Part shown: in pieces, positions 38,058-61,442 of the stretch
Layout: each line of letters starts with the position of its first letter
Position numbering within the stretch: position 1 is the first letter of the stretch
Assembly: GCA_045568435.1 (NCBI GenBank)
Contig: JBJLBB010000006.1
Location: 141,382 to 205,381, forward strand
Origin: Candidatus Poseidoniaceae archaeon
GTDB taxonomy: Archaea; Thermoplasmatota; Poseidoniia; Poseidoniales; Poseidoniaceae
Direction: 5' to 3'
DNA length: 64,000 nucleotides
Notes under the pieces: model-generated
The model's database searches: none
What the model saw: only the letters and a program-made list of their open reading frames with translations
What the model was told of the DNA's origin: nothing
Translations under genes and position numbers: made by a program

Positions 38058-38181
38058 TGGCGGCGTATTCCATTGAAATATGTATTTATCTAATTTTTTA
38101 TATAATATATTTACACCACTATAATAAATAAACTCCGGTAGGGAATTTCCAAACCTATTATTAGTTAGAGGGCGAGGAACA

Positions 38182-38916
38182 GTGGTGAAGGAAGGTATTC
38201 TAATAGCCGTTGAAGGTTTGGATGGCAGTGGTAAATCCACTCAAGCAAAACTACTGTTGAATTGGATTCGTGCCCTAGGTTTGCCTGTTCACCACACAGA
38301 ATGGAATTCAAGCCCTTTTATCAAAGCTGCAACCAAGGAAGGGAAAAATAGCAAGAGATTGAAACCAATGACTTTCCATCTAATACATGCTGCTGATTTT
38401 GCCGATAGATGGGCCCAACAGATTGAGCCGATGTTAGAAATTGGTGGTATTGTCATATGTGATAGATACAAGTTTACTGCAATGGCTAGAGATGGAGCGA
38501 GGGGTGTTTCGAACGATATAATCGAACAAAACTATTCGTTTGCTCCAGAACCTGACCTTACGATATATTTTGACATTCCACCAAAAATTGGCTATCAGAG
38601 AATAGTATCTGGAAGGCCATCGCTTAAATGGTATGAAGCGGGTTTGGATATGGGGTGGACTCATGACCCATTTGAATCATATAAAATTCTTCAAGGCAAG
38701 ATAAAATCGATTTATGACGGATTGGTGTCCGAGGGAAGAATTGAAAGAATTGATGCCAATGGTAGCGTGGCTGAAATTCAAGCCCGGGTTAGAAAATTAA
38801 TTGGCGATAAACTCGATTTCGCTAATATCGATACAATAGATGAAACTGACCGGATGGCGGAAAACATTCGGTCTTCTTCATTTGATTGGATGCAATTTCA
38901 TGAGGACGGTGAGTAA
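38182..38916 (+). CDS. Thymidylate-kinase-fold protein 1 (intact P-loop)
   Basis: IAVEGLDGSGKSTQ, AADFADR, ICDRY, PEPDLTIYFD and YEAGLD. Confidence 0.88.
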   Translation: MVKEGILIAVEGLDGSGKSTQAKLLLNWIRALGLPVHHTEWNSSPFIKAATKEGKNSKRLKPMTFHLIHAADFADRWAQQIEPMLEIGGIVICDRYKFTAMARDGARGVSNDIIEQNYSFAPEPDLTIYFDIPPKIGYQRIVSGRPSLKWYEAGLDMGWTHDPFESYKILQGKIKSIYDGLVSEGRIERIDANGSVAEIQARVRKLIGDKLDFANIDTIDETDRMAENIRSSSFDWMQFHEDGE

Positions 38917-39585
38917 ATGGGCAACAGTGGTAAATTGATTGTAATTGAGGGCCCGGACCATGTGGGCCGGTCACTACATGCTCGCCTTTTAGCAGAGCGA
39001 TTAGAAGCCCATGGAGTAGCAGTCTCAACTATTGGCTTAGCACGTTCGCAACTTTTAGGCGAACTTATCAAATCTCATTCAAATGAATTACATCAATTGA
39101 ATTGGCGCACCAGATCTTTGCTCTATGCAACAGACCTCAATGACCAAATAATTCATGAATTAGAAACACTATTAGAAGCTGGCTTCGTAGTGATTGCAGA
39201 TAGATATACACTTACACCGATAATTAGAGAAAAGATAAGAGGTGGCAATACTCGTTGGATAGAGGGACTATACAACCAGGCTCCAAAACCTGATTTGACA
39301 ATTGTACTTCATGCAGGTGGAAGGCGTCTACTAAATCGAATAATTCACAGTAATGATTTAGCTTCTTTGAATGGTTTTGAGGCAGGCATGGATTTGAATA
39401 TCTCGCCATCGGTTACGAAATCCTTCCTAGAATATCAAAAACTGCTGAAAGCCGCCTTTGCTGAATACGCCGAAGGGAAGGATATGCCTATCATCCCAAC
39501 AAAACAATCTGTTAAAGACGTTCACAAAGAAATTTGGAGTCATGTCAAACCAATCGTGAAAGATGTTCTTCAAGTTTTTAAATAG
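38917..39585 (+). CDS. Thymidylate-kinase-fold protein 2 (degenerate P-loop)
   Basis: IVIEGPDHVGRSLH (P-loop Lys replaced by Arg), LLYATD, IADRY, PKPDL and FEAGMD. It starts immediately after the stop of protein 1. Confidence 0.85.
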   Translation: MGNSGKLIVIEGPDHVGRSLHARLLAERLEAHGVAVSTIGLARSQLLGELIKSHSNELHQLNWRTRSLLYATDLNDQIIHELETLLEAGFVVIADRYTLTPIIREKIRGGNTRWIEGLYNQAPKPDLTIVLHAGGRRLLNRIIHSNDLASLNGFEAGMDLNISPSVTKSFLEYQKLLKAAFAEYAEGKDMPIIPTKQSVKDVHKEIWSHVKPIVKDVLQVFK

Positions 39586-40042
39586 TAACAGAATTTACCA
39601 AATCCTCTAAAGGGATTCTTATTCTGGGTATTGGAAAATCCACAATATGTTTCGTTGTTTTTGGAGGATAAAGGCGGCGGCTTTGGGCCCAATTTAGCAC
39701 ATCTTGTTTTGAAACATTAGAAAAATCGCTCCAGGGCCATAACTCTAGTTTGATGCTATCATTGTTTAGATACTCAACTTCGATAACTGGAATAAGGTTA
39801 AGCTTTAACTCGATGCTTGCTCGATATTTATGATGCCCATCAAGTATTGTTTTAGTTGTCTTATCAATCAAAATAGGTTTATGAAAAAAACCTTGTTTTT
39901 CCAACTTTTCTCGCATTTCTTGCAAGCGATCTGGGATGGTTTCCTCGTGAGGCAGTAAGTTGTCGATGTTAATTAATGACCACCCCATATTTAACTTTGA
40001 GAAAAGTTCGCTATTATTTATTGGGGTTGGATTGCTCATCAT
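39578..40042 (-). CDS. ParB/Srx-fold protein (SerK/SbnI-like N-terminal domain)
   Basis: LLPHEE, PILID, ILDGHHK and YPPKTTKH. The ATG at 40042 overlaps the upstream TGA (ATGA); the ORF-track start is 40060. Confidence 0.78.
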   Translation of the reverse strand: MMSNPTPINNSELFSKLNMGWSLINIDNLLPHEETIPDRLQEMREKLEKQGFFHKPILIDKTTKTILDGHHKYRASIELKLNLIPVIEVEYLNNDSIKLELWPWSDFSNVSKQDVLNWAQSRRLYPPKTTKHIVDFPIPRIRIPLEDLVNSVTI

Positions 40043-43000
40043 ATAAGCATCAATTCCCATATCCCTACAGAGCCAGAGTCCTCATTGGCCACTAATAACA
40101 ACGGAGTCCCTGTTGGGGAAACATCAGCTGAAACAAATTCCATATCCTCGGGATTTGAAGAGCCGTCCACTTGAATCCATTGTTGGAAAGTGGGATTATT
40201 GGGGTCTGTAATGTCATAAATCATAACCCCGAAACTTCGCTCCATTGAGACAAAGAGATACTGCCTTCCATCAATTTCTCCAACCTTAACTCCTTCAGGT
40301 TCAATCCCTTTATTATCATCTCTAGTATTCATTTCATCGACAAGGTGTTGGCCGTTATTGGTTGAATATTGTGAAAAGTCATGTCCACTATCCCATACCA
40401 TTTCCAAATCTGTTGTCCAAATGGAAAACGACCTTGCCCCTACTCCGCAGATATAATCTAAATCGCCATCACCATCATGGTCACCACAATTATTTGGTAC
40501 GTTCAGCCTTCCTAACTGGTTCATTTGTTGCATGTTAGAAGAATCTGGAAACCGCATTGGATCGAGGTTTGTCGAAGCAATTCGTATTTCTTCATTTAGG
40601 CCGATTTCTAAAATTCCTGATGAACTATTGAAATACCGGTAATCACGAAGATCCCCCTCATTCCCGGTTATCAGGTAAGTTACGCCATTGACTGTATAAG
40701 ACGTTATACCATCCGGCATATACATCGACATAACTGGCCAGGGCTTTGGATTGTAAGCATCTTCATCACTTGCATCGAGTGGATGTAATCTAATATTTAC
40801 GAATCCCATCGGGATATTGGTTTCAGTAGGTCCAGAATCGGTCATGATTGCTAAATTTAACTCGCCAGTAGGATTGAATTGCCAAGAGCCGGTGTCTACG
40901 AGGAAATTGAGTAAATCTATCGGCCCGTCGTTATTATCAAGATCACATAAGTTGGAAGTAGTAATCGTTGCAACAAAAACTTCCAATGATTTGTCATCGA
41001 TATAGGCTATCGTACCGATATTATTTGGACAATCGATGGAAAAGTCAACCCCTTCTAAGTCCTCTAGATTATCTGGGGTTTCGTGAATTGAGTGTATCTG
41101 TCCTGAAAAATCCCTAATTTCAATCAAATCAGATGAATCATGAACTATAATCAATTGTTGATTACCGATATAATCTAAACCTGAAATATCGCCGCCCTGA
41201 GTTGGTATTGTTGAGAAAGATGTAGTGCTAAATTGTTGGTTTGTTTTATTCAACCAATCAGATGATATTGCATAAACATGTAAGTCATTATCTGTTTGGC
41301 TACCTGCTACTAGGAAGCCAAATTCGTTTGATGGCCATGCTGTATCTCGATCTGTATTTGGAATGAATGTTAATGATTCTAATCCTTGTCCATCATCGAT
41401 GTCAACTGGTAAATCGCTTAGTGAGACAATCGAATGAGTTTCGAAGGTTGTTGAATAACTAAGTATTTCGACTTGAGTAGTCGATTCGTCTGCAGCAAAA
41501 ATTATTCCGTTTTCGTCACATGTTACTGCTTCATAGTCAGAACCGGTAGTGTAACTATCGACTGGAGTTCCTTGATTGTCGATCATATGTATTGACCCGC
41601 TGTCATCAGCTACCAAATACGCCGAGTACGCTGCGCAATAATTTAGACCGCTACCTTCCCCTGAACCAAGTAAAGTGCCGAGTGAGGTGAACGTAAGTGG
41701 CCCATCGTTAACTGCAGAATTCAAACTATTGTCAATTGATAACATGTAGGGGGTGTTAGAAATTGTTTGAAATTCTCCCGAGATGCTATTACCAACAATG
41801 GTTAATGCTTCTGGTTTATCTCCATATCTATCGCCGAGTTCAACGAATGGTGATTTCAAAACCGGATTAAGTCCCTGGCTTGCAGCCGTAGGACCTGCTT
41901 CTCCCCCAACATAAGCAGAGTTTGGATTGCCAGGTGAGAGGCCTGTGACGCCAAAAGTAGTCGAAGAATCTACCAATCGCCCCCATGATGTATCAGGGCT
42001 TAGTGCCGGGACAATTACGATATCAACAACGTTGCCTGCTGAATCTTCCATCGTGACTGACTCGCCGCCTGACGATATCTTAATCGGCAAGTGATGTGCT
42101 CCATTTTCATCTACTGTAACAGCAAAATCTTGGTTGCCATCATTGGTATCATCAGCAAACAGCAGTAAGTGGGAGTTGGCTTGTATTGACGAACCGGATG
42201 GAAAAGTGTAAGATTTTGCTGGATCATCATAGAATTTCCAACCTGTTAAATCAACCGGATTGGCAGTAGGGTTGAATAGTTCAATATAATCTGAATCGGT
42301 TACGCCATCTTGAAATGGATTTGGTGGTCCAAGAGTCACCTTGCTTGCTACCTCATTGATGACAATTTGATCGCTTACTATGGTAGATGATGGGTCGGTG
42401 ACTGGTTCGTCGACTTCTACATCGTTAATTTCATTCATTGACATCGCTTCTAAAACACCTGCTTCGGTAACAGAAGACTCAAGTTCGAGTAGGTTGGTGG
42501 CTTGTGAAGTATCAACTCTGAATACCCACTTACTAGCATCCGTACCAGTAAGTGAGTCTCGCTCGATAACTAGTAACTCATCTTGATTGATGGCAACCAT
42601 AGATGTTACTTTATCCATTTTACCGCCTGCAGAATAAGCTCCGTCTGTTAATTCAACTGGGTAGAGGTATTGCCCTGTTAATTCCATAATTGAGAGATCT
42701 ATTTCCAACAGTCTAATCCACCGCTCGGTAGTACCTGGTGTGCTCAATGATGTTTGCGTCATAGCAAAGGCAGTTGATTCATGACAGGCAACCGCTTCAA
42801 AGCCCTTATTCGACTCGATTTCTGCAATGGCTTCTGGAAGTATTGGAATATCGTTGTCACTCGCTTGGGCTATGGTTAAATTTTCTGGGACTAATCTTGC
42901 CAAGCGATTACCGTCGCCACCAAAAATTTGCAGTGATGGGATGCTTTCATCCCCAAGCAAGAATACGTTCAAATCGTCGACATTACAAACGGTTAGATCT

Positions 43001-44505
43001 TCGAAATCACCTTCCTCATTCAGGGTGACTAACGGTTCAGCGTCGACTGAAATTTGTTGGTTTATGCCGTCATATCTCATGATTGAGATTTCTGAACTAC
43101 TATCTGATAATAACGCGTAAACTTCCTGCTGTTGCTCATCTGCACCGAGGTACAGAAGTCCCGAGGTGTCTGTAACTGGAGAGTCTTCCCAAATCATTGG
43201 GTTATGGATTGCTGCACCGGATGAGTGTGGCTTAAATCCAAGTGGCATTAGTCTAGTAAATTCGCCGTTGATTACATCAAGTTCAGCAACTGCATTAGCT
43301 TCCTGTATTGCTACCCAAGCCATAGTTGAGTCGGGTGAAACCGTAATATATTCTGGTTCAAAATCTACGCTCAAGTTTGCACTAGGCCCAAAAACCCTAA
43401 TGCCTTGTGCGGCCAATTCCTCTCTTTGACTTTCGAATTGGTGGAAATATGCATGCTTCACATCGTCTTGATTTAATTCGTCCAAAGGCCCGCTGACGTC
43501 AATGATTGTCACACTACCTTCTGGGTCTGCCTTGTAATCTGCTGATGGTTGCCCTTCATTGGCAACTAAAATTGTATTACCATCAGGGGTGAAGGTAATC
43601 ATATCTGGTTGGTATCCAGCGTTAACAATTGCTAACGCTTCGCCTGATGTGTCAATAAAATAAACTAAACCAATCATTGGTTCATCCTTAATGATTGGAT
43701 ATTGGATGCCGCTAATTATCTCATATTCAGTTCTCTCTTTGTGAACTGCAATCGCAAGTGTACCGTCAGAATGTCTAATATCGATGCTGTTTGGCTCGCC
43801 TATTCTGGAAAGGTCAACTCTATCTTCTAGGACAGGAAAGGTTGGATTGCTCATATTTACAATGTCGATTGATTTTTCCAGTACGTTTACCAAAAATAAC
43901 CGTTGGGTTACGGGATCATAAGCTGGTATTTCCAATGTGCCAAAGGTTCCTGCATCATGGTCATACATACCGAGAAGGCGTGCAGATAAGGTTTGACCCT
44001 GCGCTGGAGAGCCATAATTGATTGTTAGCCCATTACAAATTTCTGAGTTGTACATCATATCCGTTCTTTCAAAAACCGTGGTGAAAGTACATCCTTGTCC
44101 AGCAAGAATTAGGGAACGGTCGTCTGAGCATGTCAAAATGGCTTCACCGTTAGCAAGCAACGCAATTTTACATCCTGAATCCAGATTGATAAGCCTCTCA
44201 CCTACTGGATAATATTCGATAGTAACTGATTTATCATCGCAATTAAGTTTCAGTTCTTGGTTATTTGTAATTTCATAATCACAATTTTGAATATATCCTG
44301 CATCAACTGTTAACATAACAGAAAGAGGGACGCCATTAGCCCCAACACAAGTAAGTTGGGAATTATTTGCATCTAATACACACTCTCTCATTTGAAAATC
44401 GGGTAATGGAGTGTATACTGTCTCTATTTCGTTTTCATTAGATATGCACCCTGTCAAAAACATAGTACACAAAATTGCTACAATAAAAATTGCTTTCCTC
44501 TTCAT
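40039..44505 (-). CDS. Giant secreted lipoprotein: choice-of-anchor-I (alkaline-phosphatase-associated) propeller with inserted phytase-like, LTD and SdiA-regulated-like domains
   Basis: Lipobox LTGC. Outer-domain motifs PDMITFTPDG..ILVANEG.P, EPEYI, MYMPDGI, NEGD.RDY, GARSFSIW, DNKGIEPEG and LLVANEDSG. LTD motif IVINEV...DYIELFN. Confidence 0.8.
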   Translation of the reverse strand: MKRKAIFIVAILCTMFLTGCISNENEIETVYTPLPDFQMRECVLDANNSQLTCVGANGVPLSVMLTVDAGYIQNCDYEITNNQELKLNCDDKSVTIEYYPVGERLINLDSGCKIALLANGEAILTCSDDRSLILAGQGCTFTTVFERTDMMYNSEICNGLTINYGSPAQGQTLSARLLGMYDHDAGTFGTLEIPAYDPVTQRLFLVNVLEKSIDIVNMSNPTFPVLEDRVDLSRIGEPNSIDIRHSDGTLAIAVHKERTEYEIISGIQYPIIKDEPMIGLVYFIDTSGEALAIVNAGYQPDMITFTPDGNTILVANEGQPSADYKADPEGSVTIIDVSGPLDELNQDDVKHAYFHQFESQREELAAQGIRVFGPSANLSVDFEPEYITVSPDSTMAWVAIQEANAVAELDVINGEFTRLMPLGFKPHSSGAAIHNPMIWEDSPVTDTSGLLYLGADEQQQEVYALLSDSSSEISIMRYDGINQQISVDAEPLVTLNEEGDFEDLTVCNVDDLNVFLLGDESIPSLQIFGGDGNRLARLVPENLTIAQASDNDIPILPEAIAEIESNKGFEAVACHESTAFAMTQTSLSTPGTTERWIRLLEIDLSIMELTGQYLYPVELTDGAYSAGGKMDKVTSMVAINQDELLVIERDSLTGTDASKWVFRVDTSQATNLLELESSVTEAGVLEAMSMNEINDVEVDEPVTDPSSTIVSDQIVINEVASKVTLGPPNPFQDGVTDSDYIELFNPTANPVDLTGWKFYDDPAKSYTFPSGSSIQANSHLLLFADDTNDGNQDFAVTVDENGAHHLPIKISSGGESVTMEDSAGNVVDIVIVPALSPDTSWGRLVDSSTTFGVTGLSPGNPNSAYVGGEAGPTAASQGLNPVLKSPFVELGDRYGDKPEALTIVGNSISGEFQTISNTPYMLSIDNSLNSAVNDGPLTFTSLGTLLGSGEGSGLNYCAAYSAYLVADDSGSIHMIDNQGTPVDSYTTGSDYEAVTCDENGIIFAADESTTQVEILSYSTTFETHSIVSLSDLPVDIDDGQGLESLTFIPNTDRDTAWPSNEFGFLVAGSQTDNDLHVYAISSDWLNKTNQQFSTTSFSTIPTQGGDISGLDYIGNQQLIIVHDSSDLIEIRDFSGQIHSIHETPDNLEDLEGVDFSIDCPNNIGTIAYIDDKSLEVFVATITTSNLCDLDNNDGPIDLLNFLVDTGSWQFNPTGELNLAIMTDSGPTETNIPMGFVNIRLHPLDASDEDAYNPKPWPVMSMYMPDGITSYTVNGVTYLITGNEGDLRDYRYFNSSSGILEIGLNEEIRIASTNLDPMRFPDSSNMQQMNQLGRLNVPNNCGDHDGDGDLDYICGVGARSFSIWTTDLEMVWDSGHDFSQYSTNNGQHLVDEMNTRDDNKGIEPEGVKVGEIDGRQYLFVSMERSFGVMIYDITDPNNPTFQQWIQVDGSSNPEDMEFVSADVSPTGTPLLLVANEDSGSVGIWELMLI

Positions 44506-44514
44506 AATTTCACC

Positions 44515-45529
44515 TCAGGTTAAACCTCTTACCTCGTTATTCATCAGTACAGTATATTCTGTATGCTCGATGTGAATCTTTACGTAACAAATTGGGAATT
44601 CATCTCCTGTACCGCAAATATCTATTCCATCTTCCATCAGTAAAATGCTTTCACCAAAAGTCCAGACGGTATCTTCTACCTCTTGAATTATCATGCATCC
44701 AGTGCCCATGGAACCAGGTCCTGCCTCAGGATTGATGTCTTGGCCAGACATCATGCCGTTTGTCCGGCTTGCCGTTGGTGTCTGATCTTGTTGAAAATTG
44801 ACTGAACCATCTGGAACTGCGGCATATGATTCTGTTGAGGAAAGCGCAGGCCAAGAGATATTTTGGTGAACTTCTCCTTGTGGATTTATCAGCGAAACCA
44901 TTTCACCTTCTGATTTGAGTTTGAAGTTCATGTGTAAGGGCCCTTCCTCTGGTTCATCATCGCCCCAAACAATAAGGTAGCCTCCAGCGGGAATACTGGT
45001 GCCTGCGGGGAATGTGTAACCTTCTTTGCCGCCTGCGACATACTCTTCGAACGCATCAGTCATCTTCCAGTTGGACAAATCCATTGGCTCTGCACCTGGG
45101 TTGTAAAGTTCCAGCCAGTCATCATAATCGCCGGTTTCGTCTTGTAATCCCGCATCGTTCGACGCGACGATTTCGTTAATTCTCACATTCGGGCTGCCCG
45201 AGCCTGTGTTCTCGACTTCTACTAGAGTTGGGGGTAAGCATGTTTCGTTGAGTGGATTGTTGAATTGTGTTCCATCAGAATTTACCACCTCGACCGTTAT
45301 TGTAAGATTCGCCCATTCTACTGAAGCCCCCATGTTGGATTCAAACTCCAAGTTTAACAATGCATCTTGTTTGTTGAAGCCTACTTTTTGGGGTGAATCA
45401 TAATCATGAACTATCATGTATCCTTGGATCTCATACCTAGTTTCCTGTATCATCACTAGAGGTACACCCGGCTAAGGCAAAGCTTAGCATCATAAAAATC
45501 ATCAAAAACGCTTTACTGTAATTATTCAT
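44515..45529 (-). pseudogene. Lamin-tail-domain (LTD) lipoprotein with a pilin-head-like domain; frameshift near 45440 (error or pseudogene)
   Basis: ATG 45529 gives MNNYSKAFLMIFMMLSFALAGCTSSDDTGN* (signal peptide and lipobox). The body continues in another frame (ORF 44515-45456) with INEIVA..DWLELYN..DLSNW. Confidence 0.75.
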
Positions 45530-46826
45530 TGTTATCCCTCTTGGTTATCATCTTCTTCGTTAGACGTTGCTTCATTTGAATTGGTCGGTGGTTCGTTAGA
45601 AGTTTCCGATTCGTTATTGGATATGAATATTTAGTATGTGCCATGGATTCATTGAAAATACTCTCTGGTAGTGGAACAAAGCCTACTTCTGAAATAATCT
45701 CTTGTCCTCGTGAACTGTAACCAAATTCCAGGAAAGGTAGAACCTTGGCCCAAGATGAATTATCAATGTTGAGATATATTTCTCTTGCGAGAGGAAAATA
45801 GGTTTGATTCTTAATTGACGAAACGGTCGGATGTATTACGTCTTCAATGCCGTCCGCTGCACTGTGGGTTAAATTGGCAGATATTGGCACAGAATGGAGG
45901 ACGGATTGGTGTGCTTCATAGTAAGAATAACCGAAAAAGCCTATCGCAGCGCCGTCTTGTGAAACCCCGTTGACAATGACGTTGTCGTTGGCGCTGTTTT
46001 GATAACCATTACCGCGTTGAGATGCAAAGGCTTCCACTGGGTAATCTCTTTCGCCAGCAAAACACTTGGTACAGAATACCATTTCGCCAAAGTATTCATA
46101 AGTACCAGATTGTAAATCCGGGCCCCAGAGTGATATTTCTTGGTCCAAACAATCGCTTGTATCGCCCAAATCCTTCCACTCACGAACTCCATCATCATCG
46201 TTATTTGGGGTCACGCTTGAAAGATCAAGACCGCCAAATTGTGAATAAACTAAGTCGCTTTCACTCCAATCTGAATAAATCCAGCGTAATTGTGCAACGC
46301 TGAGGCCGCCAATTGATTGTATACAACGGTCAGCATCACCGCCGCGGGCAACAATGAGGGTTACGCCGTCCATGGCAATTGGCATTTGGGTGAGAACGAT
46401 ATCGCTTGGTTTACAAGAAAAATACCTGGTACCAGATTCGAGAGTTGCCTCGATTGGTTTGAATGTTCGACTCATTGAACCAATATCGACATGGTCATTA
46501 GAGGTAGAGCAAACTGCAGAAGCCCCCACTCCCGAGCCGCCGCTGGCAACTGAGACTTGGATAGAGCCAATTTCTTCCCTAAAGCCCTCTGCCCATCCAG
46601 TTGCTAGCGGATACACAGTCGAAGACCCAGCGATCCTTATATTGCCACCAGATTGTTCGATTTGAGTGCTTCCATCAGTTATTGTATAATCTCCATTAGA
46701 TTCTTGCTTGCCTTCATCATTGGAAATGCACCCTGACATCATGGTAAAAACTAGTAGAGCCATCATAGTGAAGCAACGGAAATTATACTTCTCCATAGTT
46801 GCGGTAGAATGGTCAAATAGATTCAT
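45522..46826 (-). CDS. pstS: Phosphate-binding lipoprotein PstS (single domain; C-terminal tail probably frameshifted)
   Basis: Lipobox MSGC, IAGSSTVYP, SGGSGVG, DIGSMSR, SGTYEYF, IGFFGYSYY, YFPLAREIY and VGFVPL. Confidence 0.9.
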   Translation of the reverse strand: MNLFDHSTATMEKYNFRCFTMMALLVFTMMSGCISNDEGKQESNGDYTITDGSTQIEQSGGNIRIAGSSTVYPLATGWAEGFREEIGSIQVSVASGGSGVGASAVCSTSNDHVDIGSMSRTFKPIEATLESGTRYFSCKPSDIVLTQMPIAMDGVTLIVARGGDADRCIQSIGGLSVAQLRWIYSDWSESDLVYSQFGGLDLSSVTPNNDDDGVREWKDLGDTSDCLDQEISLWGPDLQSGTYEYFGEMVFCTKCFAGERDYPVEAFASQRGNGYQNSANDNVIVNGVSQDGAAIGFFGYSYYEAHQSVLHSVPISANLTHSAADGIEDVIHPTVSSIKNQTYFPLAREIYLNIDNSSWAKVLPFLEFGYSSRGQEIISEVGFVPLPESIFNESMAHTKYSYPITNRKLLTNHRPIQMKQRLTKKMITKRDNNE

Positions 46827-46939
46827 ACCCCGCCAATAGAATATTTAGTAATATTGAGATATAATTATCAAAATATAGTTTCTATGCATGTTGGTAGTAT
46901 AACCGAGCCTGTTAGTCGTAGATACCTAAAAAAATAGGA

Positions 46940-48436
46940 GTGACTAAAATGAAAATAAACGAGAGAGAAAAATTTGAAAAAGCGGTAAGTCCGGTAATTG
47001 CAACGATTTTGATGGTTGCGATAACTGTAGTGTTATCTGGCGTACTCTATGTATGGGCTGCAAACCTAGCAGAAACCAACACAGACGGTGATTTGAGCCT
47101 GTATAACTTCAGTGTCCGAGATGCGCCTGGTAGCCCTACTAGCGGTGCAACCGATGACTTAGTAATTGTAACAATGGATATTGGTGAGGAAACTGGTTGG
47201 GCTTCAGTAATTGTCAAACTGTCTATTGACGGTGCGGCATCAAGTACCTGTGCAAACCCTGGCTCAACAACCGGAGTTTGTGTAGTAACCGAGACCAGTG
47301 CAAATGATGGTGGTTGGCAAGTTGGAGAATCTGTCACCATATCAGAGAATTCAGTAGATCTTTGTAGCAGCGAAGTCTGTGAGATTACTGTTACTATCCT
47401 TAATAGTAGAGAAGGAACAACTCTAGACACCTCAACCACAACCTCTGAAGGTGACTCAGCTGCTAGCAGCGGTGGCTCTACAAACGGTGGCACAGGTGAT
47501 AACACTGGTGGCGACACTGGTGGATCTACTGGAGCACCTGCCTGTATTGCGAATGAGGTTTCAGTAACTGAGGCACATGCAGATGGAGATAGTGCTGTTG
47601 ATCCATCTACAGGCGTTTTATTTGATGACGATTACATCGAATTATACAATAGTGGTGCAACATGCTCCATGGATGGAGTTTTGATGTACGATTCTTCTGG
47701 AATGGAGAATGATGGTACTACTTTTGCTATGGATCTTGCTAGCGGATACACTTTGTTCCAGAAGAATGACAACGCAGTAAAAGATGGTACTGACGGATTA
47801 TTTGGTTTCGGGCTAGGTAAGGGCGGAGATTCTGTCAGCCTTGATTTCGATGCTGATGGCACTCCTGAGCAGACATTTGTTCTACCATCTTACTCCGATA
47901 ACGGTGCTGCTGAAATCTGTAATGGAGTAATTCAACCGACCGGCCCAGGTGCAGAAACCCCGGGTTCAGCCAACAACTGTCATGCAACTGTCGCAATTAC
48001 CGAGGTTGCTAACAAAGGCAGTTCTGGAGTTTGTTTATTCAATGATGATGGTTCAATGGACGGTACCGCAGACTGGGTAGAAATCTGGAATTATGGTGCA
48101 ACAGATGTTGATCTAAGTGGATTTATTCTTCATGATGACAAAGGTGCGGGTGATTCAAAGGCATTTGGCCTATCAGGAACTATTGCTGCAGGCGACTATA
48201 TGTTGTTATGTAATGATGACTCTACACAAGGTGTGTTACAATTTGCCTTTGGTATCGGCGGCGATGATACTGTAACCTTGACTGATGGAACCAATGAAAT
48301 CTGGACTTCTGGAGCTCTCCCTGAGGCTGATTGTGAAGCAGACGCTGCATGTAATCCTGATGATGTCTATGCCATGGATGGTAAAGGCGCTTGGTCTTAT
48401 GTACCTGGTGCAGAAACCCCTGGTGCAGAAAACTAA
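46940..48436 (+). CDS. Archaeal type IV pilin-like protein (class III signal) with two C-terminal LTD-like domains
   Basis: KFEKA|VSPVIATILMVAITVVLSGVLYVW, Gly/Thr linker, then VTEAHA..DYIELYN and ITEVAN..DWVEIWN..DLSGF, each ending AETPG. Confidence 0.85.
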   Translation: MTKMKINEREKFEKAVSPVIATILMVAITVVLSGVLYVWAANLAETNTDGDLSLYNFSVRDAPGSPTSGATDDLVIVTMDIGEETGWASVIVKLSIDGAASSTCANPGSTTGVCVVTETSANDGGWQVGESVTISENSVDLCSSEVCEITVTILNSREGTTLDTSTTTSEGDSAASSGGSTNGGTGDNTGGDTGGSTGAPACIANEVSVTEAHADGDSAVDPSTGVLFDDDYIELYNSGATCSMDGVLMYDSSGMENDGTTFAMDLASGYTLFQKNDNAVKDGTDGLFGFGLGKGGDSVSLDFDADGTPEQTFVLPSYSDNGAAEICNGVIQPTGPGAETPGSANNCHATVAITEVANKGSSGVCLFNDDGSMDGTADWVEIWNYGATDVDLSGFILHDDKGAGDSKAFGLSGTIAAGDYMLLCNDDSTQGVLQFAFGIGGDDTVTLTDGTNEIWTSGALPEADCEADAACNPDDVYAMDGKGAWSYVPGAETPGAEN

Positions 48437-48468
48437 TGCAAAATAAATCATATTTTGTCCCCAAAACT

Positions 48469-48517
48469 TGAGATTATGCTCGGGGGTTTCGGCCCCCGAG
48501 TATACTCATTTTATTTT
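48469..48517. terminator. GC-rich hairpin with TTCG loop and T-tract between convergent genes
   Basis: tatgctcggggg-tttcgg-cccccgagtata followed by ttttatttt. Confidence 0.75.
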
Positions 48518-48534
48518 GTGAAAACTAACCCTTG

Positions 48535-49617
48535 TTATGAAGCGATGTTAGTAATCCTTGAATCGAGGAAATTTTGAATCGCATTGTATGCTGCTTCAAC
48601 CCCGTTATCGAAGATTATTGTTGGTGATTCATTGTTAGCCGATAATAGTGCAGCGTCTAAATCATCTACAGTGATTTTACGCTTATTCAGCATTGCAACA
48701 TTGGCATAGGCTTTGCTCGCTAGCACTGCATTAATCTCTTGCTCAACTTGGCCGGGTTCTGGAATGCACAAAGATGGAAGCCCTAACACACCAACTTCAC
48801 CGAGTAGTTGGCTACCTGCGGTTTGATAAATTAAATCGCAACTAAGTAAATCATCAATAAAACCCTGATTGGAAATTGGGCAAGAAATGACATCTTCTGG
48901 TATTTCTTCGGGTTTATGGCCGTATAACTTTACTTTCAAACCGTGCTTTCTGGCATGATCGACTATTGCGTCAAAATGGCAAAGTACGCTTTTTCTCATG
49001 TAAGCAACAGCATGGGTGCCTTGTGGCTGCCATGCACCAGGGAAAAACTGCGGCCTAAGCATAGGGCCAACTAGATGTACATCATCTTTTTTTGGCTCTA
49101 AATTAAAGCCCTTTGAAATAACGCTTAAAGCAGGTCTTGGAGTGAAGATTTTGCACAATAACCTTACTGGAAAAAGTCGTGCTCGTTGGCTTATTGACAA
49201 CCTATCAGCAAGTTTTGTGTCAAGTGAGAAACGTTGGCTGTTGAAGGAGATAATTGGTTTATCGAGCGTTTTTGCTGCTCTGGCAAATGTCGGTTCAAAA
49301 TCTGAGATTAAAGCATCAGGCTGATAGTGTTGTAATTGCTTTATACAATCCTTGACTCTGTTACGATGGCCTTTGATGAATTTAGCAGTAGCATAGGCAG
49401 TGCCAAAGTAGGATATTCCTCGTTTCCCCAGTACAAATCTTGGGGTTTCTAGATGAGTCACTGATTCGGCTCCGTACCGCTTCTCTAACAAATCTACTGC
49501 ATCGCCACAAGTAAAGAACTGTACGCTGTGGCCGGCTTCAATCAGTCGGTCTGCTAAACCGATAGCACGAGTAGTATGCCCCCTGCCTTCGCCTGCTAAG
49601 GCATAAGCGATATTCAT
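48535..49617 (-). CDS. GT-B glycosyltransferase, MJ1255/VC2487-like (GT28-related)
   Basis: YALAGEGRGHTTR, ISDFEP, TAGSQLLGE and P.PGQVEQEINA. ATGA overlap with the upstream metallophosphoesterase. Confidence 0.85.
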   Translation of the reverse strand: MNIAYALAGEGRGHTTRAIGLADRLIEAGHSVQFFTCGDAVDLLEKRYGAESVTHLETPRFVLGKRGISYFGTAYATAKFIKGHRNRVKDCIKQLQHYQPDALISDFEPTFARAAKTLDKPIISFNSQRFSLDTKLADRLSISQRARLFPVRLLCKIFTPRPALSVISKGFNLEPKKDDVHLVGPMLRPQFFPGAWQPQGTHAVAYMRKSVLCHFDAIVDHARKHGLKVKLYGHKPEEIPEDVISCPISNQGFIDDLLSCDLIYQTAGSQLLGEVGVLGLPSLCIPEPGQVEQEINAVLASKAYANVAMLNKRKITVDDLDAALLSANNESPTIIFDNGVEAAYNAIQNFLDSRITNIAS

Positions 49618-50519
49618 ACAATCACCTCGGCAGCACGCTCGATATTCGGCTCTAATTCATCGAAATCAAGATTGAATTCTGCTTCGAAGGATGGTTGATT
49701 GCTGGCACTTTGTTTCGCTCTTTCTCTCAGTAGTGAAATTGTTGAGATTTTCGGTGAATACTCTAGGATTTCCATTGTTCCATCCATTGCTTCTGCGATT
49801 GCGGTACAAGATTCCAACCAATCTCCGTCATTCCAATATTCTACGCCGTTTTTTACTCGGAATTCTGCTTTGTGAATATGTCCACAAACTACTCCATCAT
49901 ATCCGAGTCTCGCGGCTTCTCGTGTTACAGTATTAACATAGTTTTTGAATGTCCTGGAATTACTTTGCATCGCCCTTCTAGCAGCGGTTGCTAATGACCA
50001 CTGGGGCAGTTTTAGCAATCGCCTAGCCCAAGCAATAGGGCGGTTTATTTTCATCAATAATTGAACGCTAAAGTGGCCTAAGTGGCACAGCCAGCGATGG
50101 TTTTTGATAAATAAGTCAAACTCATCTCCATGTATTATCCATAGATTTCGACCGTCTGCAGTAGTGTGTTCTGCTTGATTTATTATTTCTATGCCATGAA
50201 TTTTTGTTGAACACCAATCGCGGAATGCCTCATCATGATTGCCGGGTATGTAGTAAATCTGAGTGCCTTTATTGGCTTTTGAAATCAAATTTTGTATTAT
50301 TAGATCTTCAGTTTCTGTCCAATGCCACTTCTTCCCTTTGCACCAGTGGTCAATAATATCACCAACAAGGTAGATTTTCTCTGCGTCATGAGATTGTAAG
50401 AAGGCTAACAGCTTATCGCTTTGAACGCCTTTAAGTCCAAGATGGCAATCTGAAATGAATAACGTTCGATAATGTGTGGCCTCTAGTAACAGAAATAGCG
50501 CCCCGTTTGGGCTAATCAA
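49614..50519 (-). CDS. PlcP/LpxH-like metallophosphoesterase (phospholipase C-like)
   Basis: YRTLFISDCHLG, YLVGDIID.W, YIPGNHDE, IHGDEFD, VVCGHIH and YWNDGDWLESCTA. Confidence 0.85.
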   Translation of the reverse strand: MISPNGALFLLLEATHYRTLFISDCHLGLKGVQSDKLLAFLQSHDAEKIYLVGDIIDHWCKGKKWHWTETEDLIIQNLISKANKGTQIYYIPGNHDEAFRDWCSTKIHGIEIINQAEHTTADGRNLWIIHGDEFDLFIKNHRWLCHLGHFSVQLLMKINRPIAWARRLLKLPQWSLATAARRAMQSNSRTFKNYVNTVTREAARLGYDGVVCGHIHKAEFRVKNGVEYWNDGDWLESCTAIAEAMDGTMEILEYSPKISTISLLRERAKQSASNQPSFEAEFNLDFDELEPNIERAAEVIV

Positions 50520-50574
50520 GGAGAATACTATATTTCACCCCAAAGAAAGTAAGTCGTAGTATATAGGATATATA

Positions 50575-51690
50575 TCAACCAAATCTCCCTGAAATATACC
50601 TAGCAGTCAATTCTTTTGATGGGTCGCCAAAAATTTTCGAGGTCTTGTCGAATTCAACTAGTCTGCCGAGGTACATGAAGCCGGTATAGTCACTTACACG
50701 TTGAGCTTGACTCATAGAGTGAGTAACAATAACCACTGTGAAATGTTTTTTCAGTTCCAAAATTAATTCTTCAATTTTTGCCGTAGCAATAGGATCTAAT
50801 GCTGAACAAGGTTCGTCCATAAGAATTACTTCGGGTTCAACTGCAATTGTTCTAGCAATACAAAGTCGTTGTTGTTGTCCACCGGATAGACTGGTGCCCA
50901 ACTCATGGAGTCTGTCGTTAACTTCGTCCCAAATTGCAGCACGTCGCAATGACTCTTCGACTATTTTATCCAACTCCCTCCTACTTGGGGTGTAATGAAG
51001 TCTAACGCCGTATGCGACATTTTCGTAAATTGATTTAGGGAATGGATTTGGTTTTTGAAATACCATGCCAACTCTTCGACGGATGGTAACCAAGTCAGCA
51101 CTACGCCCCATTATTTCCTCGCCGTCAAGTTCGACTGAACCGTCCACTTTACAAATTGAGATTAGATCATTCATTCGATTTAAACATCGCAATAAAGTCG
51201 ACTTACCGCAACCGGATGGGCCGATTAGAGCAGTCACTGAATTGCGTTTGAATGGGATGGATACATTGTAAATTGCTTGGGCATTGCCATAGTGTAAATC
51301 TAAGTCCCGAATCCACATATGAGCATCGCCATCGATTTCTAAATCTCTTGTTGAATCTGGTATTTCTTCATGAATATCAGAATCATCGCTCATTTCATCC
51401 GGTAATGATGCTAAATATTCTTTGATGATTGTAGATTCCTCAAAATCTGCTTTGCCATCAATCTTAGACATTGAGGTTAAGATACCTCGAATTTGAGATT
51501 TTTTAGGCTGTTCCGAATCGTTAGAGAGCAGTTGTTTTAGTTGAACGAAAAGTTGTTCCTCCTCGTCAGAAATTTCCCCGTCGGCCGCCATTAGCTCTTG
51601 CAATGCATTGAATAACGACTCATGATTATCACTAATCTCTGTCTCTTCAACGATTTCTTCATCTTCTGTGTTTTCTTGTTTTTTCGTCAT
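50575..51690 (-). CDS. pstB: Phosphate ABC transporter ATPase with a ~120-aa TerB-like N-terminal extension
   Basis: [56 protein letters not shown] and YISGRFG. Confidence 0.96.
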
Positions 51691-54600
51691 GTGCTTGAAT
51701 ACCTCCTAAAGTGTGCACGGAGTAAAATTGCTGCTGAGTTGACAATAACTAAAGTACCTAACAACACGATTGAAGCGCCAGCAGCTGCGACTTTAAAGCC
51801 CATTTTTGGCATATCTGTCCAGCGATATACTTGAACTGGTAATACGGTGTAAAATCCTCTATCATTAGAGTCTGGTCCAACATATTCTGCCGGATCTGCC
51901 GACATTGGGCCTCGGTCAGCCCATAATGGAATGTTTTGTAAGTGAGGTTCAATACCAGGGAACCAACTAGCAAATCCGTCTAACGATGGAGTATGCTGAT
52001 ATGATACGTAAAAGAAGGCGTCTGGTTCAGTAAATACTGAGGCAACTGCGCCAACCAAAATAAGAGGTGCTGCCTCCCCCATAATTCTTGACATGGCTAA
52101 AATAGTTCCAGTCATCATTCCAGGCATTGCATGTGGCAATACATGGTCTTTAGTCACCTGCCATTTGGTACAGCCTAAACCAAATGCTGCATTTCGTAAT
52201 GATGGTGGAACTGCCCTGAGCGCCTCTTGTGAAGAGATTACAATTGTAGGCATAGCCATCGTTGCCATGGTCATACCAGCGGTCATCACTGTACCCCCCA
52301 ATCCTAGACCAATTCCTCTATCAGTCAAAAAGAGGGCTAATCCAAATAACCCGAATACAATCGCTGGAACTCCAGCAAGGTTAGTAATTAGAGCTTGAAT
52401 TCCTCTTCGGAACGAATTATTTGGTGCATACTCTTCTAGCCAAATTGCTGCGCCAATTGAAAGGGGAATGGCAAACAACATCGTGTATCCCACAACGTAG
52501 ACGCTACCCCAAAATGCCGCCCTTAAACCCGCTTTATACGGTTCTGATGAAGTATAATCTGACCATACAAATGGAATGTGAATATTCATTGGAATGACAA
52601 ACAATGCTATCACCATGACCACCAGTGCCGCAGTCATCCATCCCTCTCGTCCTTTGATTACTAATCCTAATCGGTCTTCCTGAATCTTGTTGGTTCGAGT
52701 CAATTGTAGTGCTGCAATTACCAACTTTTTAGCCCCGACAAACGACATCAATAATAGAACCGCCCCTATAATCCATCCTTCGATTAAAATCCATGAAAGA
52801 GCAATATACCAGACGATTACGTTTAACACCAACAACCCGAAATCTACCAATCCGTCTGCTAGAGGAACATTTTCATCAGGGCGCATCTTGATAATATCTG
52901 AAATTGCAGTAATTAAGGCGATAAAACTCATCAGTGATACTGCTCCACCAATCGTGAATGAGAATGGGACCAATAATACCGGTTGGTTTTCATTAAATGT
53001 ACTAATAAAGATAAGCAATGCTCCGATGAAAATAAGTAGCCTAATTAGAACACCAAATAATCTGCTTAATAGTTCTGAAGAAAATGATAACCATGACCAT
53101 GTTGTTTTCGTTCCAGTATCAAGTTCCTTTGAGCCTAATTTGATGAGCCCTGAACGTATTGATAACAGAGTCCGGTTTGGATATCTAACAACAAAAAACA
53201 TCCCAATTAATCCTAGGTAAGCAAACATCGGCAGATAAGGGTCTCGTTCTTCATACATTTCCAAGCCACTCTCATGTCGATTTGAGGCTCCGCAATATTG
53301 CAGCCATGATAACTGGTCAAGATATCTAATTGTATCACACCATTCTTCTGAGTCCATTATTTGATCTGATACTAGAGAAGTTGCTTTATCACAATCAAAG
53401 TCTGCATATAGTGGATCATTTTGTTTGTATGATTCTGAACATTTTTTCGAATACAGGTCAGAAGTAATTTGCCAAACAACAGGTATTGAGGAGATATTGG
53501 TTTCAGAATAATTAAACAACTTTGCGGCAGAAACCCCTTGCCCTTGAACCAAGTTAGCAATACCGTCTCCGTCGATATCTCTATCTTTTACTTCATCATG
53601 AACTCCATCGCCATCTGCATCGTTTAATGAAATCCATTCACTTATTGACATTGGTTGGTCGCCTGATTCATATCGGCCAACGCCTGGACAATATTTTGGA
53701 TGCCCGATAATAGGATTATCGTCATTATCCCCATCAATATCAAAGTCACAAACATCAATTGTTCCATCGTTATCCAAGTCATCGTCATCGATAAACCGGA
53801 ATTGGAACCAATCTGCGGGAGAGCCAAGAGCAAAATCGCCAACCTCTCTGTATGAGGTTTCTAGAGCGTCATTAGCCGGACCTGATGTTTGAGAATAAGT
53901 GACAGTGTAATTCATCGTATGGTTGACATATAGCCAATTTGTTGTTACCCCTCCTGACGGTTTTAAAGTGATGTGGGAGTCTCTCTCAAAGTAATCCCAT
54001 TGACCTAAAAAGCCGTTTGATAATGAAGGGGCAGCAATTCGACTAGATGTGCTAAAATACGGGCCTGATGGGTCATCCACTAGGTTGACATACACTACAT
54101 CGTGACCTGTATTAGAAATAGTTACTCGGAATTCGGTTGACCGGGTTTTGGTAAAAATTGATGCTTGGATTTCATAGCCATCGTCATTCTTGAATTCTCC
54201 TACAACTGCCTCACCAGTCAAACCTGCTGATAGGATGTATGCTGATGTTTCAGCCTTAGTACAGAATTCTGGGGTAAACATTCCAATATACTCTTGAGGC
54301 CGTAATATCTGTTCTGGAATTTGCTCAATGTCAAGTGGCCGCCATTCCCTATCTGTTTGGTTGTAAATCGAAGCAACTGTTATTTCTGAAAATTCGCCTA
54401 TTCCAGTTGCGCTTCTGTTAAGCCAAATATCTCCATCACCGCGGAAAATTGGCGTTACTGGTGTATAATGTAGCCATAATTTACCATCTTTGAATGCGTG
54501 CGGGTAATCATTGCTGAACTCTAATACACTGTTTAAGAATTCGTCGCCCTCTGCTGAATCCCAACGGAGACCTTTCCATACCCATTGGCTTCCATCATCT

Positions 54601-55379
54601 GAATCGACCCAATAATCTCCCATTCCTGGGGTTGGGGCATCTGGTCGCTTGAAGATGTTGATTCGCTCTTCTTCTCCGGTGCTGTAGCCCTTAGCTTCTT
54701 GACTAGTGCCGGGTAATATGTCTAGAACCTCCCATGGCTCAACAGGTTTGTAAGTATATTCTGCTAAGCCCTCATCACAAAGCGTACGCTCTAAGTCAGT
54801 ATCTAAATCCCATACAGATTGGCCGTCTATGCTGGTAAATATCTCTGAGTCATTTTCTATGCCCATAAAAGCACCGTTAGAGAGTATTGGTCTTGGATCG
54901 TAATTGTCTCGAGTTGCAGCATAGTGAGTTTCTTCCCATTTTGCCTCTATAGTGATATTAGACCGATCTATGCGTAAGTCTGCATCGAAGGGTTCAACCC
55001 TTGCATCGCTAGGTACTGACAAACCAGACGGTATTTGGTCGGTTCTGTACTCTACAGTATTGCCGGAACTATCTAACCAGCTTGTTATGCTGTACGCTTC
55101 CCAAGAAGGATTCCAACTTTCTGCTTTCCAAGAAAGTTGTGTTTGTGCAACTGGTTTACTGCCTTCTCTTATCCCATCAACTTCAATTTCTTGTTCAGGA
55201 ACAAATGCCTCCTCTGTGATTTGTGTCAATAGAGTAACAAGAGCTAAACCGCAAACTAAAGCAATTGAAATAAACACGGATTTGCCAATTTTGGCGGTTG
55301 CATAACGGCGCTTTAACGAGCGTTGTGGAAGCAGGGATGTACCGAAAAGGCCATTGTAATTGCTCAGTCGTTCTCTCAA
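51687..55379 (-). CDS. pstA: Phosphate ABC transporter permease PstA with a very large extracellular insertion (1230 aa)
   Basis: C-terminal core [47 protein letters not shown]-like and LPVQVY.W. Confidence 0.9.
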
Positions 55380-57883: not shown

Positions 57884-57929
57884 TGGACTCTTTTATGTTC
57901 CTAAATATACTATATAGTCATACATAGTT

Positions 57930-57968
57930 GAACCAAGTGGAAGGGGTTGCCCCCTTCGCACTTGATTC
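57930..57968 (-). terminator. Long hairpin with GCAA tetraloop between pstS and pstC (partial terminator or mRNA-stabilising element)
   Basis: Minus strand gaatcaagtgcgaagggg-gcaa-ccccttccacttggttc, beginning 28 nt after the pstS stop. Confidence 0.7.
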
Positions 57969-57995
57969 GGAGGACTTATGTTGACTCTATAGTAA

Positions 57996-60244: not shown

Positions 60245-60299
60245 AGTATGCTCTCTCTCGATTCGGGGGTAGTTCACATAGTATTGTGTACTGCCTCCA

Positions 60300-60345
60300 C
60301 AAACTAATTATTTCACTATATTAATATATAGGCATATATATAATT
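60300..60345. promoter_or_regulatory. AT-rich divergent promoter region for pstS and the phoU regulator, with a CTATAT-N4-ATATAG inverted repeat
   Basis: CTATAT at 60316-60321 and ATATAG at 60326-60331, with flanking TATA-like tracts. Confidence 0.5.
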
Positions 60346-60391
60346 GGGGTGTCATGGGTATCTATCCGGAGTCATACGGAGGTGCGTTAAC

Positions 60392-61434
60392 ATGGAGATT
60401 GTGGGCAATATCGAGTATCGGAAACTACAGGTTACTGGTGGTTCTACATTCATTGTTAGCCTGCCAAAAAAATGGATCAGAAATAACGGTCTGTCGTCCG
60501 GAGACGTAGTAGGGGTAGAATGTTTAGCAAGTGGGGAAGTACAAATTACTCCTCACGAAGTAAAACAAAATAAACGCAGAGTATCTATTGACTTAAGCAA
60601 GTTCCCTAAAAGTGCGCTTTACGATTACCTTGTTGGCGCATATGTTTGCGGGGCTGATGTGATTACTATCACGATGAAAGATGGAATCCCAATTCAACAA
60701 AAAAGAATCATTAGAAGATTTCTTAGAGATACAAGAGGAATGGAGGTATCAGAAGATGAAGTTAAGAAAATATCGATTGTTTCACTACTAAATCCAAATG
60801 AATTGCCACTACAAACAAGTTTGAATCGAATGTATTTACTAGTAACAAGTTTGGTAGAAGATACACTGGGAGTACTTGCTGGGGACGATAAGGATATTAT
60901 TTCTGATTATGAAGACAGGGAACGGCAAATTGATGCTAGACGTTTACTTATCCATCGGCAAGTTGCTATGGCCCTACATTCGCCACAAATTGAAAGGGGT
61001 TTGGGTATTGATAGATATCAAGCTATGGAGCATGCAATCATGGCCAATTACTTAGAAAGGATGGGCGATCACGCGCAAACCTTTGCTAGTTTAGTTGATG
61101 GTGACCGAAACCATAAGATTGATTTTGTCGGAAAGTCAACTGCCAATGGCAGCGATACCAATATGGTTATCTTCACTTAGGAGCGATTATAAGAAACACA
61201 TACTCAAAAGATATTTCTGTCCTAATAAAAGCAAAACAAGACTTGACTAAAGCAACTGCCGATTTAGAGCATCATGAGAACGAATTGATGTCTTCACGGG
61301 CACGCGCAACCAGTGTTCTTTCTGAATTTAGAATATCTGAAATCGTTAGAAGATTATGTGGATATAGTATAGACCTTACAGAGACTCTAATCAATATGCT
61401 TATTGCAGGTAAGACCGAGGCCTATGGTAAGTAG
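60392..61434 (+). pseudogene. phoU: AbrB-PhoU archaeal phosphate uptake regulator, interrupted by two frameshifts (~61100 and ~61180)
   Basis: RKLQVTGGSTFIVSLPKKW (AbrB) and ERMGDHA. The protein continues in shifted frames as QLPMAAIPIWLSSLR, then AIIRNTYSKDISVLIKAKQDL...RRLCGYSIDLTE. GGAGGTG precedes ATG 60392. Confidence 0.8.
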
Positions 61435-61442
61435 GTGAGAAT

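Follow-up and report, generated by a model that had tools for sequence, protein, structure and literature searches.

The closest described system is the polyphosphate kinase PPK3 of Sulfolobus acidocaldarius, a heteromeric enzyme encoded by the genes Saci_2019 and Saci_2020 (Hofmann et al., J Biol Chem 2026, PMC12995831; preprint 10.1101/2024.08.28.610084). Both proteins were formerly annotated as thymidylate kinases (TMKs). Saci_2019 is the catalytic subunit (cPPK3) and Saci_2020 is an inactive partner that activates it (rPPK3), and the complex is an alpha2beta2 tetramer with an rPPK3 dimer at its core (PMC12995831). The reaction is reversible and favours the formation of ATP from polyphosphate (polyP) and ADP; polyP-dependent ADP kinase activity is stronger than polyP synthesis. 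PPK3 proteins form a clade apart from canonical dTMP kinases (dTMPKs) and have not conserved the residues that bind dTMP; cPPK3 has a conserved basic cleft, and the arginine of the DRX motif is replaced in rPPK3 (PMC12995831). Here we analysed a pair of adjacent TMK-fold genes, referred to as A and B, at positions 38182..39585 of a 64,000-nucleotide stretch (henceforth the window) of contig JBJLBB010000006.1 from a Candidatus Poseidoniaceae archaeon (assembly GCA_045568435.1), and compared it with PPK3.

A further parallel, drawn in the paper and in its preprint, is the two-domain class II PPK2, which has an inactive N-terminal domain (PMC12995831). Class II PPK2 resembles the pair in that an active P-loop kinase module is joined by a paralogous one that is inactive and serves oligomerisation, and in polyP-dependent nucleotide phosphorylation. 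It differs in belonging to another family and in having its modules fused rather than separate, and the polyP and nucleotide sites are swapped in PPK3 relative to PPK2 (PMC12995831).

We consider it likely, with a probability of about 0.75, that the pair encodes a family-3 polyphosphate kinase in which A is the catalytic subunit and B its activating partner. The host is a Marine Group II (MGII) archaeon of the order Poseidoniales, as judged from a thermosome, an archaeal pilin and lamin-tail domain (LTD) surface proteins encoded in the window and from the named relatives of A and B, which come from metagenome-assembled genomes of Poseidonia, Poseidoniaceae and Thalassarchaeaceae. A preliminary description of the locus had proposed that an active and a degenerate TMK-like protein form a heterodimer that makes or uses polyP and does not phosphorylate dTMP. 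Membership of the PPK3 clade and the Saci_2019/Saci_2020 precedent agree with the polyP part of that idea, whereas a heterodimer differs from the published alpha2beta2 assembly. The idea itself is a rediscovery of the published family and not a new one.

Sequence, structure and phylogeny of the pair

The two open reading frames (ORFs) and their motifs are as the preliminary description had them. Both proteins match Thymidylate_kin (PF02223, cut-off 27 bits), A with 88 bits and B with 57.3 bits, and neither has a match to PPK2 (PF03976) at E 0.1 or better. The TAA stop codon of A directly adjoins the ATG of B, and a GGTGA stands just before this ATG. Like the adjacent TMK-fold paralogues of PPK3, which share one transcription unit, the pair thus consists of neighbouring, here abutting, ORFs. 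By inspection of the sequence, the intergenic region before A contains TATA-like runs at about 38090-38125, and the purine-rich GAGGGCGAGG stands directly before the GTG start; this region is probably the promoter and ribosome-binding region of a two-gene unit. The GC content of the pair's region (0.394) is not distinct from the rest of the window, in which Rfam and tRNA scans found nothing.

We searched A and B against all sequences of the Protein Data Bank (PDB). The best match of A was st1543 of S. tokodaii (STK_15430; entries 2plr, 4nzy, 4rzx and 5h70), with E 6.1e-52 and 179.8 bits over residues 3-212; a manual count of the printed alignment gave 98 identical positions out of 210 (about 47%). 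This protein is named as a cPPK3 homologue by Hofmann et al. (PMC12995831). Canonical TMKs scored at most 51.1 bits against A (E 1e-12 or weaker), which makes the relationship of A specific to cPPK3 over canonical dTMPK. The best match of B was also st1543 (5h70, 76.5 bits), with all others at or below 33.5 bits. An AlphaFold model of B (predicted local distance difference test score 87.3) was compared with known folds, and its top eight matches were the eight st1543 chains (TM-scores 0.78-0.88), followed by canonical TMKs. A search of the ESM Atlas returned only bacterial "thymidylate kinase" clusters and added nothing further. The motifs LIHA-DF-DR, DRY and EAG-D are common to st1543 and A. 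The two differ in that st1543 comes from a thermoacidophile and lies in a ppx operon, and A has an additional acidic C-terminal tail of about 30 residues. The tail contains a conserved D-R-x-x-E and a D-W pair; it is common to the aligned Poseidoniales copies and absent from the aligned bacterial A proteins.

The phylogeny was computed from 57 rows: 25 A and 25 B proteins, together with 7 canonical TMKs encoded by the same genomes. It contains no Sulfolobus or Nitrososphaera sequences and its canonical rows are long-branched. The 7 canonical TMKs were split from the 50 A and B rows at 99/98, which places both subunits in a clade apart from canonical dTMPK. B was monophyletic at 99/100, and A was paraphyletic to B under the rooting used. 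Within B, the Poseidoniales sequences form a long-branched clade.

The residue patterns separate the pair from canonical TMKs in the same way. In our alignment, the canonical F-x-A-D-R-x-x-H and A-Y-Q-G motifs, whose positions we take to be the thymine-stacking and phosphate-binding (dTMP) residues, are replaced in both A and B: the F by H or Y, the R by F or L, and the YQ by R-D/E. Nine basic residues (K18, R76, R95, R103, R107, R140, R145, K149 and R204) are invariant in a 12-sequence alignment of A, so that A combines lost canonical dTMP motifs, presumed to be the substrate positions, with conserved basic residues. The motif (Y/F)EAG(L/M)D, which the preliminary description had seen in both proteins, is not a chance resemblance: every aligned relative of A and B carries it within an insert of about 14-20 residues, which canonical TMKs lack. 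A has an intact Walker A motif (GLDGSGKST), whereas in B the motif is degenerate (GPDHVGRSL), with its lysine replaced by arginine.

In several respects the pair is laid out like the S. acidocaldarius enzyme (SaPPK3). Both consist of neighbouring TMK-fold paralogues, of which one has intact catalytic motifs and the other is degenerate, in a clade distinct from canonical TMKs; the dTMP-site residues are not conserved, the basic residues are kept in the catalytic subunit and less so in the partner, and no PPK1 or PPK2 was found in the genome. The differences concern the host, a mesophilic marine euryarchaeal lineage, the genomic context, with a Pst/PhoU island in place of ppx, sixA and CHAD, which were found neither nearby nor elsewhere in the genome, and the partner, which has arginine for the Walker A lysine and keeps the DRX arginine. 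Compared with canonical TMKs (PF02223, TIGR00041), A and B share the fold, the P-loop, the DRX motif and the lid, but lack the F...R and YQG substrate motifs, carry the EAG-D insert, are accessory genes and form a separate clade.

Distribution and genomic context

We searched the window genome (94.55% complete) for further TMKs. Three PF02223 matches were above the cut-off: A, B and a separate TMK of 453 residues on another contig. A canonical dTMPK is thus present elsewhere in the genome, and the situation that the preliminary description had regarded as fatal to its idea, with the pair as the only tmk, does not apply. The separate gene was found in 297 of 301 sampled Poseidoniales genomes, including 66 of 66 high-quality genomes and all 26 genera, and its full length is conserved. 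B occurs in 54 of the 301 genomes, 14 of the 66 high-quality genomes and 11 of the 26 genera, and in only 5 of 48 other genomes of the window's genus. The housekeeping role falls to the 453-residue TMK, whereas the pair is accessory and also lacks the conserved thymine and phosphate motifs of a canonical dTMPK. The same arrangement was seen in five other pair-bearing genomes (Chthoniobacteraceae, Halobacteriales, a delta-proteobacterium, Eremiobacter and Pyrinomonadaceae), each of which has exactly three TMK-family genes, namely the pair and one higher-scoring canonical copy elsewhere. The housekeeping TMK of the window genome has an N-terminal TMK domain with an unusual P-loop (GGDGSGKG) and DRN in place of DRY, and a C-terminal extension of about 250 residues without a family match. 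A fourth PF02223 match, below the cut-off (17.3 bits), at about 31001-31171 in the ATPase gene 30257-31618 of the window was read as a generic P-loop match and set aside.

The preliminary description had found no PPK1, PPK2 or Ppx in the window, and this extends to the whole genome, where PPK1, PPK2, Ppx-GppA, CHAD and CYTH were not found at the completeness given above. Across the 301 Poseidoniales genomes, PPK1 was present in one, on a small contig, and PPK2 was patchy (58 genomes). With PPK1 found in no more than a single genome, the order's only candidate for polyP synthesis would be the pair. The pair and PPK2 were found together in 31 genomes, the pair without PPK2 in 23 (including the window genome) and PPK2 without the pair in 27. 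This overlap exceeds the expectation under independence, although the genomes are related and no statistic was drawn from it. Given this co-occurrence, the pair does not simply replace PPK2 or act as an alternative to it. Two genera have both nearly throughout (g21, pair in 17 of 24 genomes and PPK2 in 23 of 24; g26, pair in 8 of 9 and PPK2 in 9 of 9), and PPK2 sometimes lies 46-52 kb from the pair on the same contig. Among the rows examined in Data S1 of PMC12995831, one is a Poseidoniales genome, scored 0 for each of PPK1, PPK2 and PPK3, which fits the patchy distribution of the pair in the order.

We scanned species-representative genomes for the pattern of the pair, confirmed at least 592 stretches and analysed the best 80 loci. 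These comprise 9 Poseidoniales loci and 71 others, mostly from Verrucomicrobiota, Acidobacteriota and delta-proteobacteria with a few from Halobacteria and Thermoplasmata; none is from Thermoproteota. A B-type gene directly follows A on the same strand in 77 of the 80 loci, and the remaining three end at a contig edge just after A. The P-loop pattern missed 14 of these 77 B genes, owing to overlong ORFs with naive start codons, and three of them read GR[ST] once re-trimmed.

To describe the neighbourhood, ORFs within five genes of the pair were clustered, and for the 48 largest clusters a single representative each was scanned against Pfam. Ppx-GppA is a neighbour in 31 of the 80 loci (none of them among the 9 Poseidoniales loci), CHAD in 15 and His_Phos_1 in 9, these three in related bacterial loci; an ABC ATPase is found in 9, and two PhoU-type clusters occur in 3 and 4 loci. 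The preliminary description had placed such pairs near CYTH, CHAD, PhoU and Ppx genes; three of the four were recovered, and CYTH was not among the 48 clusters with scanned representatives. A ROK gene is found in 10 loci (L057 and nine others), always directly downstream of the pair. The ROK family includes polyphosphate glucokinases, and a ROK gene in this position would be in keeping with a polyP operon. Recurrent neighbours in the Poseidoniales loci are a PHO4-PhoU_div fusion (4 of 9), a PhoU-AbrB protein (4 of 9) and PAP2 (4 of 9), and the Poseidoniaceae loci share with the window its ParB_N-like, glycosyltransferase, metallophosphoesterase and Pst genes. Some relatives are fused in a single chain, as A-B, as A-B with Ppx-GppA domain III/HD, as SPX-TMK-DUF2252, as MFS-TMK-DUF2252 or as inorganic pyrophosphatase-TMK. 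Together, the neighbours and fusions tie the clade to phosphate and polyP. The fusion proteins are P0281, P0311, P0315, P0323, P0325, P0359, P0232, P0244 and P0231, of which the large ones measure 771-2575 residues; the MFS transporter fusions carry DUF2252/APH, and the inorganic pyrophosphatase domain is InPase.

In the window, the pair stands at the left edge of an accessory island rich in phosphate genes (Table 1), as the preliminary description had placed it. Three genomes of the same genus that lack the pair show DNA similarity to the window up to about 38060, and the similarity resumes at about 63050. In one of the genomes without the pair, a single-contig genome (G003), the matches to both flanks of the island lie within about 13 kb of each other. 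Closer relatives (G034 and G054) have the same island at 91-93% DNA identity. The pair is followed by an ORF with similarity to ParB_N and SerK, a surface protein of 1488 residues and further LTD proteins. Domain scans also identified three PstS, a PstB, giant PstA/PstC-type permeases, a metallophosphoesterase, a glycosyltransferase, a PhoU-AbrB fusion and a PhoU protein. The island thus contains Pst, PhoU and phosphoesterase genes, and no Ppx, CHAD or SixA was found there.

Several of these neighbours have features of their own. The ORF that converges with B has weak similarity to ParB_N and a 69-bit match, far below the cut-off, to the N-terminal part of the archaeal ADP-dependent SerK model; in 3 of the 9 other Poseidoniales loci (L005, L008 and L013), a homologue follows shortly after the pair. 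The 1488-residue protein is a candidate extracellular phosphoesterase of the island. The giant permeases have BPD_transp_1 at their C-terminal ends only, and their long N-terminal parts are without a family match. The PhoU-AbrB fusion is a candidate phosphate-responsive regulator, and four other Poseidoniales loci (L009-L012) have a homologue with 43-46% identity shortly before the pair.

Table 1 Positions of the pair, its motifs and the neighbouring features (window coordinates unless another contig is named)
Feature	Position	Strand	Details
Gene A, cPPK3-like, predicted catalytic subunit	38182..38916	+	244 residues, GTG start
Walker A of A, GLDGSGKST	38215-38241		residues 12-20
DRY of A	38461-38469		
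YEAGLD of A	38632-38649		residues 151-156, inside the clade-specific insert
Acidic C-terminal tail of A	38818-38913		residues ~213-244
Gene B, rPPK3-like, predicted non-catalytic partner	38917..39585	+	222 residues, ATG start
Walker A of B, GPDHVGRSL	38950-38976		residues 12-20
DRY of B, intact	39199-39207		
FEAGMD of B	39376-39393		residues 154-159, inside the insert
Intergenic region 5' of gene A	38058..38181	+	124 bases, AT-rich
Accessory phosphate island	38100..62700	.	~24.6 kb, bounds approximate to a few hundred bases
ParB_N/SerK-like ORF	39578-40060	-	160 residues, convergent with B, overlaps its last 8 bases
Choice-of-anchor I/phytase-like/lamin-tail protein	40039-44505	-	1488 residues, secreted or anchored
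Two giant Pst-type permease genes	51687-57883	-	1230 and 835 residues
PhoU-AbrB/MazE-type fusion	60344-61180	+	PhoU domain and DNA-binding domain
Core TMK	L001:1480-2841 (G000:C2:336001-337359)		453 residues, TIGR00041 116 bits

Sequencing runs gave a weak hint that the pair is expressed. Sixteen DNA runs from five studies contain most of the stretch, and two RNA-Seq runs of one study contain three short contigs on A, one of them identical over 260 nucleotides, and one on B. Neither strand nor level can be read from these contigs, parts of the stretch that they leave uncovered are uninformative, and two runs (X17 and X18) are probably DNA.

Weighing the assignment to PPK3

Several observations weigh against PPK3. 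Regarding B, its assignment as the orthologue of rPPK3 is drawn from clade placement and gene order, its predicted inactivity is deduced solely from the Walker A change, and the arginine of the DRX motif, which is lost in rPPK3, is kept as DRY. Regarding A, its score of 90.6 bits lies above the cut-off (83.25 bits) of TIGR00041, the NCBI equivalog model of dTMP kinase, and its homologue in S. tokodaii was once reported as an unusual thymidylate kinase (preprint discussion, 10.1101/2024.08.28.610084). Regarding the genomes, Ppx and CHAD, which define the published operon, were not found in the window genome, Ppx-GppA was found in 0 of 301 Poseidoniales genomes, and 31 of the 54 B-positive genomes also have PPK2. 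The RNA contigs are short, come from a single study and could reflect carry-over of DNA.

The state of B deserves closer attention, and we assessed it over the whole B family. A search of the representatives with a B profile gave 23,075 matches at E 0.001 or better, of which 381 clusters were at E 1e-30 or better; residues were counted in profile-based columns for the 99 B-type domains among the best 150 representatives. The Walker A lysine position was covered by 77 of these domains (22 of 99 did not cover it), and the residue was Arg in 63, Lys in 5, Cys in 5 and another in 4. The change from Lys to Arg is thus a property of the whole B family. Of the 97 domains that span the position of the DRY arginine, 94 retain it, and DRY was invariant in all 19 B sequences that we aligned. 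These patterns raise the possibility that B is not inert and could bind a nucleotide or polyP, acting as a sensor of energy charge or as a second, slow site that determines which way the reaction runs. Six residues are invariant in the 19 aligned sequences (D95, R96 and Y97 of DRY, the further arginines R104 and R108, and the lid arginine R141), and the retention of a basic residue at the Walker A position suggests that a phosphate ligand is still bound. In the characterised system, Saci_2020 shows trace ADP formation and the holoenzyme is strongly inhibited by ADP, but rPPK3 is described as inactive (PMC12995831). The Poseidoniales B proteins, moreover, are long-branched (2.49 changes per column) and have lost several of the basic residues conserved in A, with no equivalents of R76, R145 and K149, and binding of a ligand by B is read from sequence. 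We therefore hold a non-inert B to be somewhat unlikely, while noting that it refines the PPK3 explanation and does not exclude it.

It is improbable, in our view, that the pair is instead a nucleotide monophosphate kinase, with dTMP or a different nucleotide, possibly a modified or salvaged one, as its substrate, B in a structural role and no involvement of polyP. Public records label both A and B as "dTMP kinase", and the PDB entries of st1543 carry the same title; the TIGR00041 score of A and the early report on the S. tokodaii protein point the same way. The TIGR00041 model, however, evidently does not separate PPK3 from dTMPK (B, with 65.8 bits, is below its cut-off). In S. acidocaldarius, dTMP kinase activity was found for Saci_0893 only and for neither Saci_2019 nor Saci_2020 (PMC12995831). 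The canonical base- and phosphate-binding motifs are replaced in both A and B, a separate TMK is core in the order while the pair is accessory, and the neighbours and fusions indicate phosphate and polyP rather than nucleotide metabolism.

That the genes are decaying passengers of a mobile island, functionless in the host, is very improbable: although the pair is patchy even within the genus and stands at the island boundary, all 55 B matches in the 54 genomes are open without internal stops, the key residues are invariant across the families of the order and in bacteria, the order of A and B is kept in almost all the loci analysed, and RNA-library contigs fall on both genes.

Predicted mechanism and implications

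On the PPK3 explanation, A would bind ATP or ADP in the P-loop site of the TMK fold, and its former dTMP site would be rebuilt as a basic groove for the end of the polyP chain. By homology with the characterised enzyme, A is predicted to move the gamma-phosphate of ATP to the end of polyP in a reversible reaction, ATP + polyP(n) <-> ADP + polyP(n+1). B, without the Walker A lysine, would have no turnover of its own, serving instead as the core of the complex and as the activator of A, and the abutting stop and start codons would suit the synthesis of equal amounts of the two subunits. The context of the island suggests that phosphate storage is linked to high-affinity uptake: the pair is carried together with Pst, PhoU and phosphoesterase genes, and phosphate that the cell acquires in pulses could be banked as polyP and drawn back as ATP. 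Since no exopolyphosphatase of the Ppx family was found, the reverse reaction would be the main exit of polyP in the window genome.

We compared these results with the literature. Hofmann et al. surveyed 47,545 genomes and name Sulfolobaceae, Nitrososphaeraceae and a few bacteria as hosts of PPK3, and the main text of the paper makes no mention of Poseidoniales or Thermoplasmatota (PMC12995831). A study of a polyP-degrading enzyme of Haloferax gives, in the part consulted, no gene assignment relevant to the locus of the pair (PMC13318637). Our full-text searches gave no report of PPK3 or of another polyP kinase in Poseidoniales; Poseidoniales or Marine Group II and polyphosphate came up together only as incidental co-mentions, as judged from titles and abstracts. 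What is new here is the occurrence of a probable PPK3 in Poseidoniales, a B subunit that keeps DRY and has the Walker A lysine changed to arginine, and a different genomic context. We tentatively propose, as a reading that we hold to be possible though short of an even chance, that the pair is an MGII polyP synthase travelling with a phosphate-acquisition island, and that B represents the widespread form of rPPK3, with Walker A arginine and intact DRY, in which a phosphate ligand is still bound and which could set the direction of the reaction by energy charge. The Sulfolobus subunit that lacks the DRX arginine would then be a derived special case.

The A-B pairs look more widespread than the "few bacteria" of the published survey, to judge from the at least 592 confirmed stretches and the 381 clusters of the B profile search; many of the scan and profile matches are in Verrucomicrobiota, Acidobacteriota and delta-proteobacteria, with some in Halobacteria and Thermoplasmata. 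The Lys-to-Arg signature provides a simple sequence marker for the non-catalytic subunit. The "dTMP kinase" labels and the acceptance of A by TIGR00041 mean that the likely polyP function is invisible in current annotation. Poseidoniales are among the most abundant planktonic archaea and are uncultured heterotrophs. If the PPK3 explanation is correct, some of them carry a polyP kinase next to their genes for high-affinity phosphate uptake, and this subset may store phosphate as polyP and contribute to marine polyP cycling.

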